Under the pieces are notes generated by a model, which was not told where the DNA came from, ran no database searches, and saw only the letters and a program-made list of their open reading frames with translations. Made by a program: the position numbers and the translations under genes. 64,000 nt of DNA from Patescibacteria group bacterium (lineage in GTDB: Bacteria; Patescibacteriota; Microgenomatia; JAMCYU01): positions 66,033 through 130,032 of the forward strand of contig JAMCYU010000004.1 in the NCBI GenBank assembly GCA_023473585.1, given 5' to 3'. Below are positions 3,945 through 47,619 of the stretch, in pieces. How positions within the stretch are numbered: position 1 is the first letter of the stretch; the number at the start of each line of letters is the position of its first letter.

Positions 3945-4367
3945 ATGAAAATGGAAATTTCGGCCGGAGGTGTTATCTATACTCAAAAAGGCCCAAAAAA
4001 AATTAAAATTCTGCTTTTGCTGGATAAGAATAATCATTGGACATTCCCTAAGGGTTTAATTGAAAAGGGCGAAGAAAAGATCGAAGCGGCCAGAAGAGAA
4101 ACCAAAGAAGAGGTCGGACTGCAAAGATTAAAGATGAAGGTTGCTCTTTCGCCTATTAAATATTGGTATAAATGGAAAGAACAAATTGTCAGAAAAACCG
4201 TCTATTATTTTCTTTTTGAAGGAGACGAGACCGAAAAACTTAAACCTCAGGAAGAAGAAGGGATTAAAGAAGTCAAGTGGGTTTCTCTTGAGAAGACGTT
4301 TGAAATCATCGGTTATCCCAAAACAAACGAGCCGATTTTAAAAGAAGTTAAACAACAATTGCTTTAA
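3945..4367 (+). CDS. NUDIX hydrolase
   Basis: Nudix box GLIEKGEEKIEAARRETKEEVGL (Gx5Ex7REUxEExGU). Confidence 0.7.
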   Translation: MKMEISAGGVIYTQKGPKKIKILLLLDKNNHWTFPKGLIEKGEEKIEAARRETKEEVGLQRLKMKVALSPIKYWYKWKEQIVRKTVYYFLFEGDETEKLKPQEEEGIKEVKWVSLEKTFEIIGYPKTNEPILKEVKQQLL

Positions 4368-4372
4368 AATCT

Positions 4373-4747
4373 ATGGATTGGTTTTTTGCCTCAGACATTC
4401 AAGAGTCTATTAAAAAAATCGTGGCTTCGTTAATGATGGGTCATGTTGATCCCAAAAGAGTGATTTGTTTCCGAAGCCAGGGTTCCAAAGCTCACGCCAG
4501 GGCCAGGATTTGGAGTTTGCCGCGCGTTTGGCAAAAAGCTTTAAATCTGCCCGCCCACTACGTTTTGGAGGTTATTTCGGAAAAGTTTGATCATTTGTCC
4601 GACGATGACCAAAAGCGCATTCTTATTCATGAACTTTTGCATATTCCTAAAAACTTTTCCGGCTCGCTTCTTCTCCACCGGGGAAGAGGAAGAAGGATTG
4701 ACACGCACAAAGTAGAGCAACTTTTTCAGGAATATAAAAAAAGATGA
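4373..4747 (+). CDS. putative Zn-metallopeptidase-like protein (HExxH)
   Basis: LIHELLHIP contains HExxH; small soluble protein. Family assignment uncertain. Confidence 0.35.
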   Translation: MDWFFASDIQESIKKIVASLMMGHVDPKRVICFRSQGSKAHARARIWSLPRVWQKALNLPAHYVLEVISEKFDHLSDDDQKRILIHELLHIPKNFSGSLLLHRGRGRRIDTHKVEQLFQEYKKR

Positions 4748-5439
4748 TCACGATTCTTCACGGCGAAAATCATTTGGCTTCAAGAAACCAGCTCGAAGCT
4801 TTGAAAAAAGAACAAAAGAACGAGGAAATTCTTTCTTTGGACGGCAAAAAAATCACCCTAAATGATTTAATCCAGGCTCTTGAAGCGCCTTCATTACTAG
4901 CTTCCTCCCGACTGGTGGTTATCGAACGCTTCTTCTCTTTGAAAAAAAGCGAAGAAAAACAAAAGATGATCACCTATCTTGTCGAAAATCAAAAAAAGGT
5001 CAATTTGCTTCTTTGGGAAGATGAGGAAGTTGCCAAAACCACGCTTGCTCAATTTTCTGGCGCGAAAATCCTGCTTTTTAAGAATGAGGGCGTTATTTTT
5101 AAGTTTTTAGAATCTCTAAAACCAGGTTGCACAGAAGAAATGCTTGCCCTTCTTAAAAAAGCCTTAGATTCGGAAATTCCCGAAATAATTTTTTCTTTGC
5201 TTATCAGACAATTAAGGTTACTTTTGTTGATGACCACTGAAACAAAAGAAGAAGCAGAGGATCTTAAGCGTTTGGCAACATGGCAAAAGGAAAAATTGGC
5301 AAGGCAAGCCAAGGACTTTACCCAGAAACAATTAATAAGCTCTTACCATGAACTTTTGGAAATTGATTCTCAGCAAAAAACCGGCCAAAATGCCTTTGAT
5401 TTAAAGAAAACTCTTGAAATTTTTATCATGAACCTCTAA
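4744..5439 (+). CDS. holA: DNA polymerase III delta subunit-like (short)
   Basis: N-terminus ILHGEN..L....LDGKKITLNDLIQALEAPSLLASSRLVVIE resembles HolA (YLLYGEE...FD..E.SL.EL.EALETLPFFSDRRLVIL). ATGA overlap with the upstream gene. Confidence 0.45.
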   Translation: MITILHGENHLASRNQLEALKKEQKNEEILSLDGKKITLNDLIQALEAPSLLASSRLVVIERFFSLKKSEEKQKMITYLVENQKKVNLLLWEDEEVAKTTLAQFSGAKILLFKNEGVIFKFLESLKPGCTEEMLALLKKALDSEIPEIIFSLLIRQLRLLLLMTTETKEEAEDLKRLATWQKEKLARQAKDFTQKQLISSYHELLEIDSQQKTGQNAFDLKKTLEIFIMNL

Positions 5440-5449
5440 GATAAAAATA

Positions 5450-6835
5450 ATGGAAAAAATCGACCCTGCAATTTTTAAGGCCTATGACATCAGGGGCATT
5501 TACCCCGTCGCTTTGGACGAAGACTTGGCCTATAAAATCGGCCGCGTTTTTGCCCAAATGATTAAAAAAGAAAACCCCGGCAAAAAGATCGTCATTGTTC
5601 TGTCGCGCGATATGCGCTTATCTTCTCCTTCTTTGCACGAGCAAGTTCTCCAGGGTTTTGCCGACGAAGAGGTTGAGGTTATTGATATCGGCCTGGCCTC
5701 AACGCCGCTGTTTTATTTTGCCGTCGCGACTTTTAAAGCCGACGCCGGCATGCAGATTACCGCCTCTCATAATCCTAAAGCCTATAACGGTTTTAAAATG
5801 ACCCGCCAAAAGGCCAGTCCGGTTAACGGCGATAACGGTATTTACCAAATGCGCGACGCCATTTTATCTTCAAATTTTGAGAAATTAAATAAACCCTTAA
5901 AAGTTCAAGATCGGGAGATTCTGGCTCTTTACCTTGAGCACGCGAGACAATACGTCAAAGACAAAGGGATGACCAAAAAAATTATTATTGATTCAGCCAA
6001 TGCCATGGCCGGGATTGATTTGGCTTCATTTTTCCAAAGTTTTCCCAACATAGAAGTGACTTATCTTAACCAAAAACTTGACGGTTCTTTTCCCGCCCAT
6101 GAAGCCAACCCCTTAAAAGAAGAAACCCTAGAGACTTTGAAAAAACAGGTGCTTGAGAGAAAAGCCGATTTTGGGATCGCGACGGACGGGGATGGTGACC
6201 GATATATGTTTATTGACGAGAAGGGACAATATGTCCGGTCTGACCTTGTTAATGCTCTTCTGGCCAGAAAAACGGTTACCGAGGGCAAAGGAGAACCCAT
6301 ACTTTACGATTTAAGAAGCAGCAAGGTCGTTGCGGAGGAAGTGGAAAAATACGGCGGTAGGGCTTTAAAATGCCGGGTGGGTCACTCGTTTATTAAAAAA
6401 CAAATGCGGGAAGTTGACGCTTATTTTGCCGCCGAATTATCGGGGCACTTCTACTTGGAAGTCATGCCTGATTCCTATTTTGAGTTTCCCTTATTTGTGG
6501 TCGCGAAATTAATGGAAATTCTTGAAGAGGCAAAAAAACCATTATCGGAAATGATTAAGCCTTTGAGAAAATATTTCCACACCAATGAGTTTAATTTCAA
6601 AATTGAAGATAAAGAAAAGGCCATGGCGGCCTTTGAAAAAAAATATCAAGACGGTCAACAGTTTAAGCTGGACGGTTTATCAATCGAATACCCGAGCTGG
6701 TGGTTTAACGTCCGCATGTCTAACACGGAACCCTTATTAAGGTTTAATTTGGAAAGCGACACCGAAGAAGAAATGCAAAGAAAAAAAGAAGAAGTCAGCC
6801 AAATAATTTTATCTTTAGGCGGCGAAAAAGAGTAA
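5450..6835 (+). CDS. phosphomannomutase/phosphoglucomutase
   Basis: 461 aa. Active-site TASHNP motif; the whole protein is alpha-D-phosphohexomutase family-like. Confidence 0.75.
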   Translation: MEKIDPAIFKAYDIRGIYPVALDEDLAYKIGRVFAQMIKKENPGKKIVIVLSRDMRLSSPSLHEQVLQGFADEEVEVIDIGLASTPLFYFAVATFKADAGMQITASHNPKAYNGFKMTRQKASPVNGDNGIYQMRDAILSSNFEKLNKPLKVQDREILALYLEHARQYVKDKGMTKKIIIDSANAMAGIDLASFFQSFPNIEVTYLNQKLDGSFPAHEANPLKEETLETLKKQVLERKADFGIATDGDGDRYMFIDEKGQYVRSDLVNALLARKTVTEGKGEPILYDLRSSKVVAEEVEKYGGRALKCRVGHSFIKKQMREVDAYFAAELSGHFYLEVMPDSYFEFPLFVVAKLMEILEEAKKPLSEMIKPLRKYFHTNEFNFKIEDKEKAMAAFEKKYQDGQQFKLDGLSIEYPSWWFNVRMSNTEPLLRFNLESDTEEEMQRKKEEVSQIILSLGGEKE

Positions 6836-6841
6836 AAAACC

Positions 6842-7894
6842 ATGATTGACTTAAACGACGAAAAGTTGGTGTCAAGTCTGGATAAGGCGAGGATGCTTGA
6901 GTCCATCAGGTTGCTACCCGATCAGTGTCGTCAGGCTTGGGAAGAAACCAAAAAAATTCAAATACCCTCTTCTTATATGGCGCAAACCTCGCAAATTATC
7001 GTTTCCGGTATGGGTGGTTCCGCCCTTGGAGCCCACATTATTAAAAGTCTTTTTCACCAAGATTTATCTTTACCCGTCGAAATTATTAATGACTATCATC
7101 TGCCGGGATACGTTGATTCCCGAACCCTTCTCCTTCTTTCTTCCTACTCGGGTTCAACCGAAGAAACGCTTTCTACGGCTTTCGAGGGCCTAAAAAGACA
7201 AGCTAAAATTGTCGGGATTACCACCGGAGGTAAATTAGGCAGTTTTCTTGAGGAAAATCATTTTCCCGCTTATATTTTTAAACCTCAATTTAATCCCTGC
7301 GGCCAACCGAGAATCGGTTTAGGCTATTCTATTGTCGGCCAAATCGGTTTGTTAAGAAAAATCGGTCTCTTAAAACTAGACGAAAATGATTTTTATCAGA
7401 CGATTGACTCATTGAGCCGGGAAAGCGAAACTCTCAAGAAAGAAGCCAAAGCCATGGCGGCAAAAATACAGGATAAAATCGTTGAAGTTATTGGGGCGAG
7501 TCATTTATCCGGCAATGCCCACGTTTTGGCTAATCAATTAAATGAAAACAGCAAAAACTTCGCCGGGTTTTTCTTCTTGCCGGAGTTGAATCATCACCTG
7601 ATGGAAGGACTAAAAAATCCAAAACAGAATAAATTAATTTTTCTTTTTCTTAGGTCCTTATTTTATGATGAAAAAATTAAGTTGCGATTAAAATTAACAC
7701 AGGAAATCATTGCCAAAAACAATTTGCCGTTTTTAGAATTTGAGTCCCACGGTGAAAATAAATTGGCGGAAGTTTTTCAAACTCTGCTCTTCGGCAGTTT
7801 TTTAAGTTTCTATTTATCTATAATTTACAATCAGGATCCCTCGGTCATTCCCTGGGTTGATTATTTTAAGGAAAAACTGGCAAAAGCCTCTTGA
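6842..7894 (+). CDS. bifunctional phosphoglucose/phosphomannose isomerase (archaeal-type PGI/PMI, SIS domain)
   Basis: 350 aa. SIS motif VSGMGGSALGA and overall similarity to the PGI/PMI family. Confidence 0.55.
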   Translation: MIDLNDEKLVSSLDKARMLESIRLLPDQCRQAWEETKKIQIPSSYMAQTSQIIVSGMGGSALGAHIIKSLFHQDLSLPVEIINDYHLPGYVDSRTLLLLSSYSGSTEETLSTAFEGLKRQAKIVGITTGGKLGSFLEENHFPAYIFKPQFNPCGQPRIGLGYSIVGQIGLLRKIGLLKLDENDFYQTIDSLSRESETLKKEAKAMAAKIQDKIVEVIGASHLSGNAHVLANQLNENSKNFAGFFFLPELNHHLMEGLKNPKQNKLIFLFLRSLFYDEKIKLRLKLTQEIIAKNNLPFLEFESHGENKLAEVFQTLLFGSFLSFYLSIIYNQDPSVIPWVDYFKEKLAKAS

Positions 7895-7926
7895 ATCTTT
7901 CTCCTTTGTCTTGCTATACTGAAATT

Positions 7927-10230
7927 ATGGAAGGAAAATTTATCCTGTGGTTTAATGAGGTAGGAAAGGATGATATTCCTTTGGTGGGCGGTAAGGGAGC
8001 TAACTTAGGAGAAATGGCTAAATTTGGTATTCCCGTTCCCGCAGGCTTTATCGTTACGGCCCAGGCCTATTTTTATTTTTTGGAGAAAGCAAATTTACGC
8101 ACGAAAATTAAGAATTATCTTTCTTCTTTAAACCTTAATGAACCCGACTCCCTGGAACAGGTCTCTTCTCATATTAAAAGACTGATTTTAACTTCTCCGG
8201 TGCCTAGGGATTTAGCGCAAGCGATCTCTGAAAATTACGCCAAACTGGGAACCTTTTTAAAACCGGCTTTAGTCGCGGTCCGTTCTTCGGCCACCGCCGA
8301 AGATTTGCCGACCGCCTCTTTTGCCGGTCAACAGGAAACCTTCTTAAATATCTCCGGCGATGCTTCGGTCGTGGAAAAAGTACGCCAGTCCTGGGCCTCT
8401 CTTTTTACTCCCCGGGCGATTTTTTATCGCGAAGAGCAAAAATTTGATCATTTTAAAGTCGGAATTGCGATCCCTATACAGAAAATGATTCAATCGGAAA
8501 CTTCCGGCATCATGTTTACGATTGATCCTCTCTCTTCGGATAAATCAAAAATTATTATCGAAGCGATTTATGGCCTAGGCGAAATGATCGTTCAGGGACA
8601 AGTTATTCCCGACCGCTACGAGATTTCTAAAAAAGACCTTAAAATTTTAAAAAAAGATATCTCGACACAAGATAAAATGCTTGTTGGGCAAAAACATCAG
8701 AATAAGCTTTTGGAAGTGCCTAAAAAAAATAGGAGTTTACAAAAAATAAAAGATCGGGAAATTACAGAACTGGGTGTTTTGGGCAAAAAAATTGAGCGTC
8801 ATTATTTTTTCCCTCAAGACATTGAATGGGCCATTGAAAACGGGAAGATTTATATTGTCCAAACAAGACCCGTAACCACGATGGCCAGTGTTGCCAGGGG
8901 TAAAGAAGAAGCTAAAGATATTAAATTAATTAATCCAAAATTAAAACCGATTTTTACGGGCGTTGGCGCCTCACCGGGTATTGCTTCAGGGCCGGTTAGG
9001 GAAATTCATTCGCCCAAAGAAATAAATCGGGTTATTTTAGGTGATGTTTTGGTGACGGAAATGACTAATCCTGACTTTGTTCCGGCGATGAAAAAAGCCG
9101 TGGCCATTGTTACCGATCAGGGAGGCAGAACCGCCCACGCGGCCATTGTCAGCCGGGAACTGGGTATTCCTTGTGTGGTCGGCGCAAAAATCGCCACGAA
9201 GCTTCTTAAAACCGGTCAGGTGGTCACGGTCAACGGTGAAACAGGGGAAGTCTTCAGGGGCGGAATTTTGCAAAGTCAAAAAATCGCCCATGAATTTAAA
9301 AAACAAGATCAAATCTTAGCAAAAAAACACGAGATCCCCATAAAAACCGCCACGAAGATTTATCTTAACTTGGCGGAGGCAGAAAAAGTCAAAGATTTGG
9401 CGAAAATGCCGGTTGAGGGCGTGGGTTTATTGAGAGCCGAATTTGTCATGGCGCAAATCGGCATTCATCCGAAGAAAATTATTCATGATCAAAAACAAAA
9501 AATGTTTATTGAGAAACTCGCTTCTTTCCTCGCCACTTTCTGCGAGGCGTTCAGTCCTCGTCCTGTCGTTTATCGAACTTCTGATTTTAAAACCAACGAA
9601 TATCGCAATCTTACGGGCGGTCAAGATTTTGAACCCGAAGAACAAAATCCCATGATCGGTTATCGCGGCGCCTATCGCTACCGATCTGACCCGGCGGTTT
9701 TAGAATTGGAACTTGAAGCGATCAAAGAAGTTCGCAAGAAAAAAGGCTTTACCAATTTATGGTTAATGCTGCCCTTTGTCCGAACTCCGCAAGAACTTTT
9801 GGAAGTCAAAAAGATTATCGCCAGCGCCGGCCTTCTTCGGTCGCCTTCCTTTAAACTGTGGCTGATGGTGGAAATTCCCGCCAACGTGATTTTGTTGGAT
9901 AAGTTTATCGAAATGGGCATTGACGGAGTTTCGATCGGTTCTAATGATTTAACGATGTTAACCTTAGGGGTTGACCGAGACAACGCCGAACTGGCCCAGG
10001 CTTTTAACGAGCAGGACCCGGCCGTTCTTTGGGAACTAGAAAAAATTATTAAAACCTGTCATCAATATAAAATAACCTCGTCCATTTGTGGTCAGGCGCC
10101 GTCTGATTACCCTTCCTTGGTGGAAAAATTAGTACACTGGGGAATAACCAGCGTCTCGGTAAACCCCGATGCCGTAGAAAGAACCAGAGAAACGATTTAT
10201 GAAGAGGAGAAAAAATTGTGCCAAAAATAA
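7927..10230 (+). CDS. ppsA: phosphoenolpyruvate synthase (pyruvate, water dikinase)
   Basis: N-terminus LWFNEVGKDDIPLVGGKGANLGEM and phosphohistidine domain GGRTAHAAIVSRELGIPCVVG. TATACT -10 lies 6 nt before the ATG. Confidence 0.85.
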   Translation: MEGKFILWFNEVGKDDIPLVGGKGANLGEMAKFGIPVPAGFIVTAQAYFYFLEKANLRTKIKNYLSSLNLNEPDSLEQVSSHIKRLILTSPVPRDLAQAISENYAKLGTFLKPALVAVRSSATAEDLPTASFAGQQETFLNISGDASVVEKVRQSWASLFTPRAIFYREEQKFDHFKVGIAIPIQKMIQSETSGIMFTIDPLSSDKSKIIIEAIYGLGEMIVQGQVIPDRYEISKKDLKILKKDISTQDKMLVGQKHQNKLLEVPKKNRSLQKIKDREITELGVLGKKIERHYFFPQDIEWAIENGKIYIVQTRPVTTMASVARGKEEAKDIKLINPKLKPIFTGVGASPGIASGPVREIHSPKEINRVILGDVLVTEMTNPDFVPAMKKAVAIVTDQGGRTAHAAIVSRELGIPCVVGAKIATKLLKTGQVVTVNGETGEVFRGGILQSQKIAHEFKKQDQILAKKHEIPIKTATKIYLNLAEAEKVKDLAKMPVEGVGLLRAEFVMAQIGIHPKKIIHDQKQKMFIEKLASFLATFCEAFSPRPVVYRTSDFKTNEYRNLTGGQDFEPEEQNPMIGYRGAYRYRSDPAVLELELEAIKEVRKKKGFTNLWLMLPFVRTPQELLEVKKIIASAGLLRSPSFKLWLMVEIPANVILLDKFIEMGIDGVSIGSNDLTMLTLGVDRDNAELAQAFNEQDPAVLWELEKIIKTCHQYKITSSICGQAPSDYPSLVEKLVHWGITSVSVNPDAVERTRETIYEEEKKLCQK

Positions 10231-11483
10231 AAGAAATTAAAGCCCGGGAAATTTTAGATTCACGGGGAAATCCCACGATCGAAACCAAAATAACTCTCGA
10301 TAACGATATTTTGGGCATCGCTTCTGTTCCTTCCGGAGCCTCGTTAGGCAAGTATGAAGCGCTTGAACTTCGTGACGCTGACATGAACCGCTATTTTGGG
10401 TTGGGCGTTTTGAAAGCCGTAGGAAACGTTAACCAGGTCATTGGTCCAAAACTTCTTGGGTTTGATCCAACCAAACAGCAGGAAATTGACAGGTTAATGA
10501 TTGATCTTGACGGCACAGAAAATAAGAGTAAGCTTGGCGCTAACAGTCTCTTGTCGGTTTCTTTAGCCGTAGCTTCTGCTGCTTCTAAGTCTCAAAAATT
10601 ACCATTGTACCGGTATCTTAATTCTTTATATGGGGAGACATTGCCAACCACGATTGAAAAAATGCCTACCCCGACTTTTAATATCATTAACGGCGGAAAA
10701 CACGGAGCCGGTAATTTAGATTTTCAGGAATTTCATGTCGTCCCCGCAACAACGAAACCATATCATGAGGCACTCCGCATCGGCGAAGAAATCTACCAAA
10801 AACTAAAAGAGGTTTTAATTCACCGCAACGCCATTCGTTCCGTTGGCGACGAAGGAGGTTTTGCGCCAAATCTTTTTACCAATTTAGACACCCTGGAGAT
10901 CATTCTGGAAGCTGTCAAATTAACGCCCCATGTTTTCGGCCGAGATGTTTTTTTAGGACTTGACATCGCCGCTTCCAATTTCAAAAAGGCTGATGGTTAC
11001 CAAATTAAAGATAAACCGAATTCACTTTCAGCCAATGAGTTTATTGAGTATTTGATTAATCTTAATAAGGAATACCAGCTTTTGATTTTAGAAGATCCTT
11101 TAGACGAGGACGATTGGGAGGATTGGGCAAGACTGACTCAACTCTTGGGCAAAGGAACTTTAATTGTCGGCGACGATTTGTTGGCGACTAACCTTCTAAG
11201 ATTAAAGCAGGCCATCGATAAGCGTCTTTGCACCACCATTCTTATTAAACCTAACCAGGCAGGAACTTTATCGGAAACTCTGGAAGTCGTTAAAACCGCG
11301 CGTGCGGGAGGGTTTAAGGTTATTGTTTCTCATCGCTCCGGGGAAACCAACGATACTTTTATTGCCGATTTTGCCGTGGCGGTTGGTTCGGACTACGTCA
11401 AATTCGGGGCTCCGGCCAGAGGCGAAAGGGTCGCTAAATATAATCGGCTTTTGGAAATTGAGGAAGAATTAAATTTAAAATGA
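10218..11483 (+). CDS. eno: enolase
   Basis: MPKIKEIKAREILDSRGNPTIE... classic enolase N-terminus; GTG start overlapping the ppsA end. Confidence 0.95.
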   Translation: MPKIKEIKAREILDSRGNPTIETKITLDNDILGIASVPSGASLGKYEALELRDADMNRYFGLGVLKAVGNVNQVIGPKLLGFDPTKQQEIDRLMIDLDGTENKSKLGANSLLSVSLAVASAASKSQKLPLYRYLNSLYGETLPTTIEKMPTPTFNIINGGKHGAGNLDFQEFHVVPATTKPYHEALRIGEEIYQKLKEVLIHRNAIRSVGDEGGFAPNLFTNLDTLEIILEAVKLTPHVFGRDVFLGLDIAASNFKKADGYQIKDKPNSLSANEFIEYLINLNKEYQLLILEDPLDEDDWEDWARLTQLLGKGTLIVGDDLLATNLLRLKQAIDKRLCTTILIKPNQAGTLSETLEVVKTARAGGFKVIVSHRSGETNDTFIADFAVAVGSDYVKFGAPARGERVAKYNRLLEIEEELNLK

Positions 11484-30598: not shown

Positions 30599-31024
30599 GT
30601 GAAAGACCTTAAGGAAATAAGAAGTGTTATACCGCTAATCATATGGTGGTGTGAAGGGACAAAACCCAGACGTGATAAGAGGTGGAAAAACGCAGTCCTT
30701 TGCCCAATAGAGGTTAGCAACACTGATCCAAAAATTATTAAAATATTTAGAGATTATCTTGTACAAGAATTGGGGGTTTCAGAAAAAGGTATAAAGGGTC
30801 AACTGCAAGTTCATGAAGGAGATAATAAAAGTGAACTTGAGATTTATTGGTCAAAAATAACCGATATTCCATTGAGTCAATTCAATAAAACTATCATAAG
30901 AAAAATCGGAAATAAACCTGGAAAGAGTAAAGGAACTTTCAAATTAAGATTTTACAATAAAAGAGTATATAAAAAACTAGAAAGCTCTTTAACTAAATTT
31001 TTGAAGCTCTTTAACGGAGTGTAG
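30599..31024 (+). CDS. hypothetical protein embedded in tRNA cluster
   Basis: 141 aa ORF, GTG start 8 nt after a TATACA -10. Its stop codon lies inside the 5' end of tRNA-Pro. No recognisable domain. Confidence 0.3.
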   Translation: MKDLKEIRSVIPLIIWWCEGTKPRRDKRWKNAVLCPIEVSNTDPKIIKIFRDYLVQELGVSEKGIKGQLQVHEGDNKSELEIYWSKITDIPLSQFNKTIIRKIGNKPGKSKGTFKLRFYNKRVYKKLESSLTKFLKLFNGV

Positions 31025-31091
31025 CGCAGTTGGCTAGCGCGCCTCGTTTGGGACGAGGAGGTCCCCGGTTCAAGTCCGGGCACTCCGACCA
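31015..31091 (+). tRNA. tRNA-Pro (UGG), CCA encoded
   Basis: C1-G72 pair typical of bacterial tRNA-Pro, anticodon loop UUUGGGA, 3' end ...CACUCCG-A-CCA. Confidence 0.8.
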
Positions 31092-32120: not shown

Positions 32121-32153
32121 CATAAAGACTTAGGCCGTTACGACGACATATAG

Positions 32154-32182
32154 TTGACATATTTCCTCCTAATTGCTATCAT
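32154..32182 (+). promoter_or_regulatory. sigma70-like promoter
   Basis: TTGACA, 17 nt spacer, TATCAT. Confidence 0.35.
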
Positions 32183-32193
32183 TCAAACACTTT

Positions 32194-32439
32194 ATGATAA
32201 TCAGATATGAGGGAAGAGAAGTTTTTCACGAGACAACCGTTGGCGCGAAAGGCGCTTTACTTGGCGCCTTAATGGGTGGACCAAGAACGGTTAGTTTAAG
32301 GCTTGTGCCTGACCGCGACGAACCCTTAAACGATACTGTCGTTGTTAGTGCCAGTTATGGCTCTTACGAGGTAAGGGGATCAGATATAAACACGAATTCT
32401 ACCTGCCTCAGAAATCACGTAAGGTGGTCTTGTTATTAA
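32194..32439 (+). CDS. hypothetical small glycine-zipper protein (uncertain; may be non-coding)
   Basis: 81 aa ORF 11 nt after the -10, no SD. GAKGALLGALMGG motif. Local GC higher than surroundings. Confidence 0.25.
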   Translation: MIIRYEGREVFHETTVGAKGALLGALMGGPRTVSLRLVPDRDEPLNDTVVVSASYGSYEVRGSDINTNSTCLRNHVRWSCY

Positions 32440-32527
32440 GTTGTAACCCGCCTCTCTTCAAACCTTCGAAATAACATTCTCCCTGCAATAAGCAGAGCTT
32501 TTACTTCGTAATAAATTGCAGGGTTTC

Positions 32528-32610
32528 AACCCTAAAGGAGAACGTTTTCTTTGCTTCAATTCATCCTCGCAATAAATTGTGAGGTATTCTTGAAGCGCCG
32601 AATAAAAAAT
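32528..32610 (+). ncRNA. candidate structured RNA element (paralog at 47527-47619)
   Basis: CCCUAAAGG..GUUUUCUUUG-GCUUCAA-UUCAUCC-[hairpin CCUCGCAA/UUGUGAGG]-UAUUC-UUGAAGC-GCCGAAUAAAAAA. The second copy has a different but self-complementary inner hairpin and a compensatory outer-stem change. Confidence 0.35.
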
Positions 32611-32689
32611 CCTGTTTAAAGGCTATCTTTTAAGTTGGCGGTTGGGTTATAATAAATTCGTAGATCGTTTATAAGGCTTCTTCCACGAA

Positions 32690-33808
32690 TTAAGCGATGA
32701 AATATCCCCTTGTAAAAAGAGCCACCAACAGAAACTGCAGAATTAAGAAAACAATAATTGTCAGGTAAAATTGCCATTTTGTTTTTGTCAAAAGCCCCAT
32801 GGCGATAAAGGCCGGAAAAAGATGAAGAATATACCTGGGCATGCTTTGCAAGGTTCCGGTAAAAGTGGGAATCAGTAGCGAGACGATCATCCAGACCCCA
32901 TAGGAAACTCTGACCTTTTTAAGAACATAAAAACCTAAGAAGAAGTAAAAAAAAGTCGAACCTAATTCTAAAATGGCAGTAAAATAAGTAATGTTTTTAG
33001 AAGCGAAGATAATTATCTTTAAGTATCTAAAAAGAACCTGAAAGGGAGAAATAAAATTTGCCTGTCCCCAATGAATCATTGATTTTTGAAAAAGAAAGAA
33101 ATCGCCGAAGTTTATTTGCAAATATAACCCGTAGAGAATCATCCCTAAAGGAATCAGAAAAATAAAATAAACTTTTCTTTTGAAAAAATTTTCAAGTAAA
33201 TTGCCATGTTTGTCTTTATTTTGCCAATACCATTCCACCAGTAGGGCTACAATCAGGGAAAGACCCACAAGTCTGGCTAGTCCCGCCATTAAGCCAAAAA
33301 TACCCGCCAACGGCCACCGACTTTTCCTGGCACAGTAAAAACTCAGGGTGGCAAAAAGAAAATAGAGCGATTCGGTGTAAACCGCGCCATAAAAAAACGA
33401 TACCGGAAAAACCAAAAGCAAGATGAGTGTTCGCCAAGCGATTTTTTGATCAAAGTCGAAAAGAATAATTTTGTAAAAAACGAAAAGAGAAAGAAAAAAA
33501 ACAAAATTAGTTATCAGCAATCCGGAGGTGAGAAAAGAAAAAGACGTTAGTTTATGAAGAATTGAAACAAGAAATGGCAAGAGCGGAAAATAGGCAAAAT
33601 TCGGATAATGGTAACCATCACGGGCAATATTAAGATAATTCGCTCCGTCAAAATTAGCCCAAATTCCCAAGAAATAGTTTAAGGAATTAAGATAGTTCAA
33701 AGAAAACCCATGAGTCGGATTAAAACGAAGAATAAAAACCGCCAGCAGGGAAAAAAAGAAGATAAGAATCTTCCAGCCGATAAAAAAAGAGGCTATTCGT
33801 TTAAACAT
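32690..33808 (-). CDS. GT-C fold integral membrane glycosyltransferase (ArnT/PMT/DUF2029-like)
   Basis: 372 aa, >=10 TM segments. WANFDGANYLNIARDGY resembles the conserved periplasmic loop of GT-C mannosyl/arabinosyl transferases. Confidence 0.45.
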   Translation of the reverse strand: MFKRIASFFIGWKILIFFFSLLAVFILRFNPTHGFSLNYLNSLNYFLGIWANFDGANYLNIARDGYHYPNFAYFPLLPFLVSILHKLTSFSFLTSGLLITNFVFFLSLFVFYKIILFDFDQKIAWRTLILLLVFPVSFFYGAVYTESLYFLFATLSFYCARKSRWPLAGIFGLMAGLARLVGLSLIVALLVEWYWQNKDKHGNLLENFFKRKVYFIFLIPLGMILYGLYLQINFGDFFLFQKSMIHWGQANFISPFQVLFRYLKIIIFASKNITYFTAILELGSTFFYFFLGFYVLKKVRVSYGVWMIVSLLIPTFTGTLQSMPRYILHLFPAFIAMGLLTKTKWQFYLTIIVFLILQFLLVALFTRGYFIA

Positions 33809-46392: not shown

Positions 46393-47175
46393 ATGAGAAA
46401 AGTTCTGCCCGTTTTCGTCTTGGTTTTCCTTCTCTTTTTCCCTTTTGTGACTTCTTCGGTTTTTGCTGATTTTGATAAAACCTACCAGACTTATATTTCT
46501 CAATATGACGAGTACCGGATAAGTTTGACTAATTTTTTAACGAGCAAAAATCGTTATCTCACGTACAAAACCTTGACGGCTCAAACCGAAGCTCTAACGG
46601 CCACCAAGGTTTTTCTTGAGGACCGCGACCAAACCCTAATTAATTTCATGACCATGATTTTGGAGAAAAATCCTTCGGAAAGTTTTAAAAAATTAATAAG
46701 TGATGAAATTGTCTTTTTTTCAGATCATAAAAAATTAGTTACCGCCGTCGCTTCTTTGGAAGACAGCGTTCAGGTTTCCGAAACTTTTACTAACCGTTTT
46801 CCCACCACTGAAGTTTTATTAAGGCAAACAATCGCCAATGTCTTGCTTTCTAAAGTAAAAAGTTTCGACGAACAAATCGTCGATCTTATGGCGCGCTTTG
46901 AAGAAAAAATTAATTTTCTTAAAAGTCAGGGAAAAGACGTTTCCACCCTGGAACGCTGGCTTTTAGAAACAAAAAACAAACAATTATTAGCTCACGAAAA
47001 ACTAACCACAGCTCAATTGATGGCTGATCAATTTCAAACAAATAATAACCCCGCGAAGATCTCTGAAGATTTCAGAAAGGTTCAGGTTTTGATTTTTGAA
47101 GCCAATCAATATCTTAAGGAATCAACGGCTTATCTTCGGGAAATAAAGGAAGAACTCAAATATGGAAATTATTGA
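46393..47175 (+). CDS. hypothetical secreted protein
   Basis: Signal peptide MRKVLPVFVLVFLLFFPFVTSSVFA. Confidence 0.4.
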   Translation: MRKVLPVFVLVFLLFFPFVTSSVFADFDKTYQTYISQYDEYRISLTNFLTSKNRYLTYKTLTAQTEALTATKVFLEDRDQTLINFMTMILEKNPSESFKKLISDEIVFFSDHKKLVTAVASLEDSVQVSETFTNRFPTTEVLLRQTIANVLLSKVKSFDEQIVDLMARFEEKINFLKSQGKDVSTLERWLLETKNKQLLAHEKLTTAQLMADQFQTNNNPAKISEDFRKVQVLIFEANQYLKESTAYLREIKEELKYGNY

Positions 47176-47536
47176 AAATAACATTCCTGGTCCGGAGGTA
47201 AATAATTCAGAAAAAATAAGATTAGATTTACATCCCGATCGGAAAAAAATCTTTATATTTTTAGGCTTAATTATCCTTATCGGCCTAATCGCCATCGGCA
47301 GCATCGCTCTTTTTTTTGTGAAAAAACCCGCGACGGAAATTTCTTCTTCGCCTAATCCTTCCGTTGAGGCAACACCAAGTGCTAAAAGAAATCTCTCGGC
47401 GATTGCGACCGACGCGGCTTTTTTAAAACTTGAGGAAGATCTTAATAATTTGGAAAAAAATATTGGCACCGTTGATCTGACGGAACCAAAACTGACGCTG
47501 CCGATTTTGGAAATGAAAATTAGTTTCGAAAAATAA
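47162..47536 (+). CDS. hypothetical single-pass membrane protein
   Basis: 124 aa with central TM IFIFLGLIILIGLIAIGSIALFFV. Confidence 0.35.
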   Translation: MEIIENNIPGPEVNNSEKIRLDLHPDRKKIFIFLGLIILIGLIAIGSIALFFVKKPATEISSSPNPSVEATPSAKRNLSAIATDAAFLKLEEDLNNLEKNIGTVDLTEPKLTLPILEMKISFEK

Positions 47537-47619
47537 CATTCACCCTTAAGGCTAAATGTTTTCTTTGTTTCAACTCATCCCCGCCAGAGGCGGGGTATTC
47601 TTGAAACGCCAAATAAAAA
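47527..47619 (+). ncRNA. candidate structured RNA element (paralog of 32528-32610)
   Basis: UUCGAAAAAUAACAUUCACCCUUAAGG..GUUUUCUUUG-GUUUCAA-CUCAUCC-[CCCCGCC-AGA-GGCGGGG]-UAUUC-UUGAAAC-GCCAAAUAAAAAG. Lies immediately upstream of the rarA -10. Confidence 0.35.

Follow-up and report, generated by a model that had tools for sequence, protein, structure and literature searches.

Two structured repeats in a Patescibacteria genome are very probably gene-less derivatives of IS200/IS605-family insertion sequences

Two look-alike elements in the window

The window, the whole 64-kb stretch of DNA that was analysed, contains two look-alike elements, copy A at positions 32471-32601 and copy B at positions 47533-47612, whose hallmarks are shared on the plus strand. 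Copy A lies downstream of a tRNA-His gene. Copy B overlaps the end of a 124-aa ORF (47162-47536, plus strand; present stop codon 47534-47536) and is followed by rarA, for which an exact-sequence look-up of the window gene returned no record. At 131 and 80 nt, neither copy has coding space for a gene. Comparison of 32465-32608 (A) with 47524-47619 (B) on the plus strand identified a common 5' segment, the linker GTTTTCTTTG, an outer stem YTTCAA/TTGAAR, a 5x5 internal loop TTCAT/TATTC, a variable hairpin closed by CC/GG, and the tail CGCCRAATAAAAA. Exactly two occurrences in the window were counted for the core GTTTTCTTTG-YTTCAAYTCATCC, and likewise for the tail GTATTCTTGAARCGCCRAATAAAAA, where shuffled sequences predict none. 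Relative to shuffles, the folds of A and B have z scores of -3.1 and -4.7 on the plus strand and -3.9 and -4.4 on the minus strand, the two strands being equally good. The two-copy structured element of the original prediction is thereby borne out, with both copies on the plus strand where they had been placed. The outer stem shows the proposed compensatory change from C:G in A to U:A in B, and the inner hairpins differ in sequence with complementarity kept.

The ~350 nt from tRNA-His to copy A (32122-32470) hold only a mechanical 88-aa TTG ORF at 32173-32439. This stretch is conserved in two relatives (88% in L160, 74% in L159), has no Rfam match at E values up to 10, and may encode a small protein or an RNA of unrecognised type. 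Further upstream, ARAGORN reports a tRNA-Pro (TGG) at 31015-31091 that is below the Rfam tRNA gathering score (15 versus 14 tRNAs in the window).

Family distribution and covariation

An exact-pattern scan (TTCAAYTCATCC-N(8-34)-GTATTCTTGAA) of one genome per species yielded 27 loci, 26 of which are real and one a chance match inside a gene. Almost all of the genome loci are from Microgenomates (Curtiss-, Woese-, Gottesman- and Levybacteria), and the same scan of metagenomes yielded at least 120 stretches. We built a covariance model, R1, from ten copies with the structure specified by hand, as RNAalifold on a MAFFT alignment overlooked stem P1 through misregistration. R1 matched 31 copies in the genome loci and 88 + 42 among the metagenome matches listed, at least 154 non-redundant copies in these two sets. 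Within the window it matched A (105 bits) and B (68 bits) and nothing else. Further copies, which the original prediction had called for, thus number more than 150 in genomes and metagenomes of Microgenomates, a group of the CPR. Copy numbers per genome are low (2-6 seen), with up to five in a single genome among the exact-pattern loci. Near-identical copies occur in the same genome, four in JACPEV01 and four in DATDRP01, the latter with a further near-identical copy in MGHG01 (L007); because same-genome copies are near-identical while the genomes differ, the spread appears to be recent.

The canonical element is ~115 nt long. It begins with 5' AUAAC or AUGAC, followed by a stem P1 that encloses two hairpins, the GC-rich P1a and the small P1b; a linker then leads to stem P2, which has an invariant internal loop and the hairpin P2b, and the tail ends in AUAA. 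Copy A fits this layout save for ~25 extra nt in the P1a loop, and B is without P1a. The ~50-nt hairpin-rich insertion that had been described in the 32.5 kb copy therefore shrinks to this ~25-nt surplus in the loop of the 5' hairpin of a near-consensus copy. It is B, whose 5' hairpin is gone entirely, that is the aberrant one.

In the first copy set, 90.3% of the stem cells are paired as compared to 40-52% with slid partners, 26 of the 30 pairs have changed on both sides, and none of 500 shuffles reaches the observed values. Both P1 and P1a covary. When copies outside the exact-pattern selection are included, the outer stem runs through the series UUCAA/UUGAA, CUCAA/UUGAG and CUAGC/GCUAG. The abundance of further copies and of compensatory changes supports the earlier view that this is a conserved structured element and neither a chance repeat nor a leftover of duplicated gene ends.

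Strong covariation and stable folds would also be expected of structured non-coding RNAs of a new class, either cis-regulatory elements or sRNAs, with several paralogous copies per genome, and the absence of a match to known RNA families agrees with such a class. No Rfam family was matched: Rfam 15, at gathering and at permissive thresholds (E up to 10), gave chance-level hits only in the window, 18 family loci and 6 loci of autonomous insertion sequences (ISs). The base pairs argue differently. G-U and A-C occur in the stem cells at the same level (19 versus 20) and almost all pairs are Watson-Crick, which points to a constraint on DNA rather than on RNA. In full-text literature the exact core sequences returned chance primer matches only, and searches on CPR repeats, RAYT or IS200 found nothing specific to CPR.

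Empty sites and genomic neighbours

Both window copies are clean insertions, and close relatives (86-93% identical) have empty sites of the pattern ...AATAA/AAA... where the window has ...AATAA, the element, AATAA/AAA.... At the A locus, the BLAST blocks of L160 (93% nt identity) and L159 (86%) join window position 32474 to 32601 with a 5-nt overlap, AATAA. The empty site reads CCTTCGA-AATAA-AAACTCC and the filled site CCTTCGA-AATAA-CATTC...GCGCCG-AATAA-AAAATCC, an insertion of 131 nt. At the B locus, the downstream rarA is 91% identical and fully syntenic in L028, a 788-kb contig that has no B (...GAAAAATAA/AAAGGG...). The junction there is ...TTTCGAAAAATAA/AAAGGGAAGTGCTATACTTG..., and in the window the same ...TTTCGAAAAATAA is followed by the inserted CATTCACCC...ACGCCAAATAA and then by AAAGAGAAGTGTTATACTTG..., a clean 80-nt insertion. 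L029, whose rarA homolog is 98% identical, keeps the first ~29 nt of B and has lost 51 nt, indicating that this locus is decaying. The copies are flanked by a direct repeat of 5-6 nt (AATAA for A, AAATAA for B), within which the position of the junction is ambiguous; from the repeats of A and B alone, a target-site duplication is equally possible.

An indel lies immediately beside the A insertion. L160 (6122-7620) and L159 (6128-7606) carry a 1.5-kb two-gene ABC transporter module (ABC_tran and BPD_transp_1) between a membrane glycosyltransferase-like gene and the A site; the corresponding window positions, 32606-32690, are without it.

The placement of two direct copies 15 kb apart, one after tRNA-His and the other overlapping a stop codon, would fit a duplicated gene 3' end with intergenic remnants, or integrase att sites that flank a 15-kb island. 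Each copy, however, is an independent and precise insertion of 80 or 131 nt relative to syntenic relatives, the genes between the copies are housekeeping genes that are syntenic in relatives and include no integrase, and the family occurs at unrelated loci in many genomes. We give this explanation almost no weight. Integron attC sites were considered and rejected. They resemble the element as single-stranded DNA hairpins that are conserved in structure and variable in sequence and that start at or near the stop codon of a cassette, but the element has two separate hairpin domains, no R''/R' core pair (RYYYAAC/GTTRRRY), no cassette array and no integrase, and its neighbours are housekeeping genes.

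Among 234 ORFs neighbouring the copies we found no enrichment of any gene family; the neighbours are ordinary housekeeping and envelope genes. Three of the 234 contain a Y1_Tnp domain, and these lead to the relatives carrying tnpA and tnpB that are described below. Orientation is nearly random: the upstream gene is on the same strand in 35 cases and on the opposite strand in 46, and the downstream gene in 49 and 32, respectively. The copies lie in tandem-sense (22), tandem-antisense (16), divergent (13) and convergent (6) settings, and some lie beside rRNA operons on the opposite strand. Similarity among copies of the same genome begins exactly at the element, and there is thus no shared promoter. 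We also rejected the element itself as a promoter (TTGAAG as -35 and the AUAA tail as -10), the spacing being wrong and variable.

One copy near an rRNA operon lies in a Curtissbacteria MAG (L003) whose 23S rRNA gene (4332-7956) is 3625 nt long as compared to a model of 2925 positions, from which one or more insertions or introns follow. The gap from 23S to 5S is ~2.9 kb, and the element copy is located in that spacer on the opposite strand.

Ends of IS200/IS605 insertion sequences

Both halves of the element match the ends of full-length ISs. Read on the opposite strand, its most conserved part (TTCAATTCATCC-hairpin-GGTWTTCTTGAA) is the left end (LE) of full-length ISs that carry tnpA and tnpB, tnpA (in a partial record) or tnpB alone, and the other half matches the right end (RE) of full-length ISs, which terminates in ...AGGATGTCAT. 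The IS605 group has both tnpA and tnpB, and the IS1341 group has tnpB only. In L152, read on the minus strand, TTTTAT directly precedes an LE of CAAAAACATTCAAGAAAA-CCCCTTTCTTTAAGACGGGG-ATGAATTGAA..., which is followed after ~60 nt by tnpA (Y1_Tnp, E = 2.5e-42) and a 445-aa tnpB with OrfB_IS605, HTH_OrfB_IS605 and Cas12f1-like TNB domains; this LE is the reverse complement of the P2 domain of the family. L105 has the same LE followed by tnpA (Y1_Tnp, 1.6e-26), and its contig ends within tnpA, so that a tnpB may follow. In L115, L044 and L017 the same LE is followed directly by a tnpB homolog, and matches to the family that are without P1 are left ends of such tnpB-only ISs. The motif TTCAAGAA(A/T)ACC-hairpin-GGATGAATTGAA is invariant in the LE of these five autonomous ISs and in the reverse complements of A and B (alignment read without the row for L010). 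TTAT flanks the LE of L105 as well as that of L152.

The right ends agree in the same way. L044 and L115 resemble each other up to the RE terminus ...GATA-CTCCGCCC-TTTA-GGGCGTGAG-AGGATGTCAT and no further. Reverse-complemented, P1 ends ...GAAA-CCCCGCC-TTTTAA-GGCGGGG-AGGATGTCAT in copies of the TGA class, which begin with AUGA, and ...AGAATGTTAT in window copy A. No tnpA or tnpB was found within the 64-kb window.

The low-GC subfamily, L017, L044, L081 and L115 (GC 0.26-0.29), has the same left-end core attached to tnpB-only ISs. One contig of this subfamily is binned as Nanoarchaeota, which reflects either misbinning or an exchange of the IS lineage between CPR bacteria and DPANN archaea. Four Ga0256914 contigs (L103, L106, L112 and L053) have a common sequence to ~45 nt past the left-end core, where the contigs end, and differ in their other flanks; such ends are typical of assembly collapse at a multi-copy full-length IS.

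The top strand of the IS corresponds to the minus strand of the window, on which copy A (32471-32601) reads as a complete, gene-less, 131-nt element of IS200/IS605 type, similar to a PATE. PATEs (palindrome-associated transposable elements) are gene-less derivatives of IS200/IS605 that consist of LE and RE and are found in haloarchaea and also, for example, in Geobacillus stearothermophilus (PMC10055086). The LE of A (32553-32601, minus strand) is what had been described as an outer stem, internal loop, inner hairpin and tail. On the top strand it reads T-CGGCGCTTCAAGAATA-CC(hairpin)GG-ATGAATTGAAGC, with a subterminal hairpin, IP_L, at 32565-32584 and 17 nt from the flanking TTAT to the hairpin foot. 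The RE of A (32471-32546, minus strand) aligns with the RE of the tnpB-carrying ISs L044 and L115 and of other PATEs. Its subterminal hairpin, IP_R (CCCTGCAAT...ATTGCAGGG), at 32481-32523 holds the ~25-nt loop surplus, and its terminus is ...GGAGAATGTTAT, the reverse complement of ATAACATTCTCC. The target tetranucleotide, TTAT on the top strand and ATAA on the plus strand, is at 32602-32605, directly 5' of the LE, and one occurrence of it is kept in the empty sites of relatives.

Abutting the right end of A is an LE-like stretch at 32446-32470, minus strand (CTCTCTTCAAACCTTCGAAAT; compare ATTCTTGAAGCGCCGAAT). It had been taken for a degenerate upstream partial copy carried by A; the sequence is indeed present, but it is also found in L160 and L159, which have the empty site, and is therefore flank and lies outside A. 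It is possibly a relic of an older copy of the element.

Copy B (47533-47612, minus strand) is a degenerate 80-nt copy with an intact LE (47567-47612), whose hairpin IP_L is at 47579-47595 (CCCCGCC AGA GGCGGGG), and a right-end remnant at 47533-47566 (ATAACATTCACCCTTAAGGCTAAATGTTTTCTTT) from which IP_R has been deleted. The terminus TTAT of the remnant (the reverse complement of 47533-47536) is kept. From the empty-site comparison, the target tetranucleotide of B (ATAA on the plus strand) is at 47613-47616 and holds the original stop codon of the upstream gene, TAA at 47614-47616. Copy A looks intact, and B, without the right hairpin, is probably immobile.

We conclude with high confidence that A and B are non-autonomous, gene-less derivatives of the IS200/IS605 family, PATEs in which an LE is fused to an RE. 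Besides the match of both halves to IS ends, which is decisive, three features lead to this assignment: the absence of terminal inverted repeats, the position 3' of TTAT, and a spacing like that of IS608. The termini differ (CATTCTCC... versus ...GCGCCGAATAA), and the two hairpin domains, both supported by covariation, are subterminal and in direct orientation on the same strand. The distance from hairpin to end is 17-18 nt at the LE (window A, L152) and 8-12 nt at the RE (window A, L044), and the 4-mer most often found at a fixed distance across the family is ATAA, TTAT on the top strand. The two ends of TGA-class copies are different, ATGA versus ATAA, which excludes a simple target-site duplication and, together with the autonomous ISs, supports the reading without duplication. 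For the same reason, and for want of inverted terminal repeats, we rejected a MITE with a simple target-site duplication.

The elements thus share with IS200/IS605 ISs the same-strand subterminal hairpins and the lack of terminal inverted repeats, and relatives with identical ends encode a Y1_Tnp tnpA and an OrfB_IS605 tnpB. Unlike those ISs, the window copies are free of genes; the end sequences are specific to CPR/DPANN lineages, are known here from sequence, and have no published description that we found. The lineage in CPR/DPANN genomes appears, possibly, to be undescribed so far. Like PATEs, the copies are short (80-175 nt), consist of two IS ends only, are present in multiple copies, and presumably depend on a TnpA encoded at another locus for mobilisation in trans (PMC10055086). 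They differ from PATEs in that the RE part comprises only ~50-60 nt, so that a full omega-RNA is probably not encoded, and in that the copies per genome are few.

The assignment of both halves to IS ends bears on the proposal, made for the two window copies, of a functional RNA motif of riboswitch or sRNA type. That proposal is contradicted by the presence/absence polymorphism at both loci, the decay of B in the 98% relative, the lack of any gene association or orientation preference, and the identity of the two halves with the left and right ends of IS200/IS605-family ISs carrying tnpA and/or tnpB; G-U pairs, as noted, do not exceed A-C. Against an RNA class also stand the unrelated neighbours, copies antisense inside operons and beside rRNA operons, and the absence of conserved promoter-like sequence upstream of the element. 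A new RNA class is accordingly highly improbable, and the elements are ordinary mobile DNA of a known kind and not a new regulatory RNA.

In IS608, TnpA recognises subterminal hairpins in single-stranded DNA (PMC3201880). The left cleavage site, TTAC, is 19 nt 5' of the left hairpin and outside the IS, the right site is 10 nt 3' of the right hairpin, and both are read through base pairing with the four bases 5' of each hairpin (PMC3201880). After excision, the single-stranded circle is integrated 3' of TTAC, and DNA is neither gained nor lost (PMC3201880). The elements described here have TTAT in place of TTAC as the conserved tetranucleotide abutting the LE, and 17-18 and 8-12 nt in place of 19 and 10 nt between hairpins and cleavage sites (PMC3201880). 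The guide-position bases AAAA/AATA face TTAT, which parallels AAAG and TTAC in IS608. In a noisy regular-expression count the variant tails GTAA and ATAG are not consistently matched by guide changes, and the pairing of guide and cleavage site is no more than suggestive.

On the minus strand a copy is laid out as 5'-TTAT, the LE (17 nt, a GC-rich hairpin and GGATGAATTGAA), a short linker, and the RE (a hairpin and ~10 nt ending in ...GAATGTTAT). By analogy with IS608, a full-length relative would provide a Y1 HUH transposase (TnpA) in trans. The enzyme would bind both subterminal hairpins while the DNA is single-stranded, cleave at the neighbouring tetranucleotides and excise a single-stranded circle with the predicted RE-LE junction ...GAATGTTAT/TCGGCGCTTCAAG..., and the circle would reinsert 3' of another TTAT without target duplication. 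Such single-strand 'peel and paste' chemistry and mobilisation in trans are inferred from the IS608 model. The conserved hairpins are most likely single-stranded DNA handles that are gripped by the transposase. Structure would be kept while sequence is free because the IS200/IS605 transposase recognises hairpins in single-stranded DNA (PMC3201880), and the stems could change as long as pairing lasts. The bases flanking the hairpins are invariant and may be guide and contact positions. A bias towards the lagging-strand template is expected for the IS200/IS605 family; GC skew is flat across the window, which holds two copies only.

A Y1 enzyme of another type was weighed as the mobilising protein. 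A 219-aa RAYT-like Y1 protein is conserved across Microgenomates and could mobilise REP/REPIN-like repeats, to which the element is similar as a small extragenic palindrome linked to a Y1 HUH enzyme and in the Watson-Crick-only covariation of its stems. One such gene is located 1.6 kb from a truncated copy (L013), and homologs are 72-81% identical across Curtiss-, Davies- and Levybacteria, as fits a domesticated single-copy gene. REPs are tagged by GTAG or CGTC and lie in inverted orientation on either side of their RAYT gene, whereas the element has two different ends in direct orientation. The Microgenomates gene is always bracketed by its own 11-bp inverted repeat (GGGACGGTCCT/AGGACCGTCCC), which has no relation to the element and does not occur in the window, and no good copy of the element is found within 10 kb of eight such genes; the element ends match canonical tnpA/tnpB ISs instead. 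Mobilisation by the RAYT-like protein has a very low probability, and IS200/IS605 TnpA is the preferred source of mobility.

The RAYT-like Y1_Tnp gene (motif YIYLNPVKA; L013:4605-5357 and L031-L038 around 9946-10698) is found in varied genomic contexts, also in further Microgenomates. In one lineage of Curtissbacteria the genes for S7 and EF-G, in the ribosomal cluster, flank it on either side, and it looks like a domesticated or very conservative Y1 unit.

The family also carries a stop codon at one end. On the plus strand, the 5' UAA, UGA or UAG corresponds to the reverse-complemented terminus of the right end (TTAT, TCAT), and the AUAA tail is the target. The 5' stop is subfamily-specific and paired within P1, and it therefore belongs to the element. 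Since TTAT corresponds to ATAA on the opposite strand, and the RE termini TTAT and TCAT to ATAA and ATGA, insertion at a TAA swaps in another in-frame stop and would be neutral, which explains why copy B abuts the end of a gene. Seven of the 35 co-directional upstream ORFs, among them the 124-aa ORF that precedes B, terminate exactly within the element, as insertion at a TAA supplies the element's own stop in frame. On the right-target reading adopted here, the RE terminus provides the stop codon of the 124-aa ORF (47534-47536); the junction is ambiguous within the 6-nt repeat AAATAA.

A PATE might also have been co-opted, either as a gene-end module (a stop codon plus an intrinsic terminator, formed on the plus strand by a GC hairpin and a downstream UUUUCUU) or as a source of omega-RNA or guides for TnpB in trans. 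Most copies do have a GC-rich hairpin followed by GGUUUUCUU on the plus strand, the upstream ORFs that stop exactly in the element agree with such a module, and PATEs are reported often to encode omega-RNAs (PMC10055086). However, upstream genes are more often on the opposite strand (46 versus 35), divergent sites outnumber convergent ones (13 versus 6), B is undergoing deletion in a near-identical relative, and only the last ~50 nt of the IS right end are kept, probably too little for the omega-RNA scaffold of TnpB. Co-option is improbable, and both the orientation statistics and B's decay speak against selection for either secondary role, plus-strand terminator or minus-strand omega-RNA fragment. 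A broader scenario is somewhat less doubtful, if still speculative: a single IS200/IS605 lineage, with a left end kept base for base (TTCAAGAAWACC...GGATGAATTGAA), may have colonised the small genomes of CPR bacteria (Microgenomates) and, provided that the Nanoarchaeota MAG is correctly binned, those of DPANN archaea; its stop-mimicking RE could land in frame on TAA stops, perhaps as an adaptation to near-absent intergenic space, and some copies may have been co-opted as terminators or as guide sources for TnpB.

By all the usual tests (covariation, stable fold, multiple copies) the elements qualify as structured RNA, and they risk being mistaken for a new class of CPR ncRNA. Their recognition as IS200/IS605 ends prevents such misannotation, and the covariance model is ready for masking. 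The copies can serve as markers of recent insertion for strain typing, with both A and B missing from relatives at 86-93% and half of B gone from one at 98%. The TnpB nucleases of the full-length relatives, with TTAT as a likely transposon-adjacent motif, are of possible interest for the mining of compact RNA-guided nucleases. Apart from these points of annotation, typing and TnpB, this is mobile DNA of an ordinary sort.

The IS200/IS605 assignment has further support from L096, where an IS200-type tnpA is bracketed by hairpins CCACGGCTTTAGCCGTGG and adjoined by a mini-element with CCACGGGTTTACCCGTGG, which has the same loop and differs by one compensatory pair. The mini-element resides within a minus-strand region (L096:330-1342) that encodes an ORF with an rve (integrase core) domain and a 129-aa upstream ORF, beside the IS200-type tnpA, and the arrangement looks like nested mobile elements.
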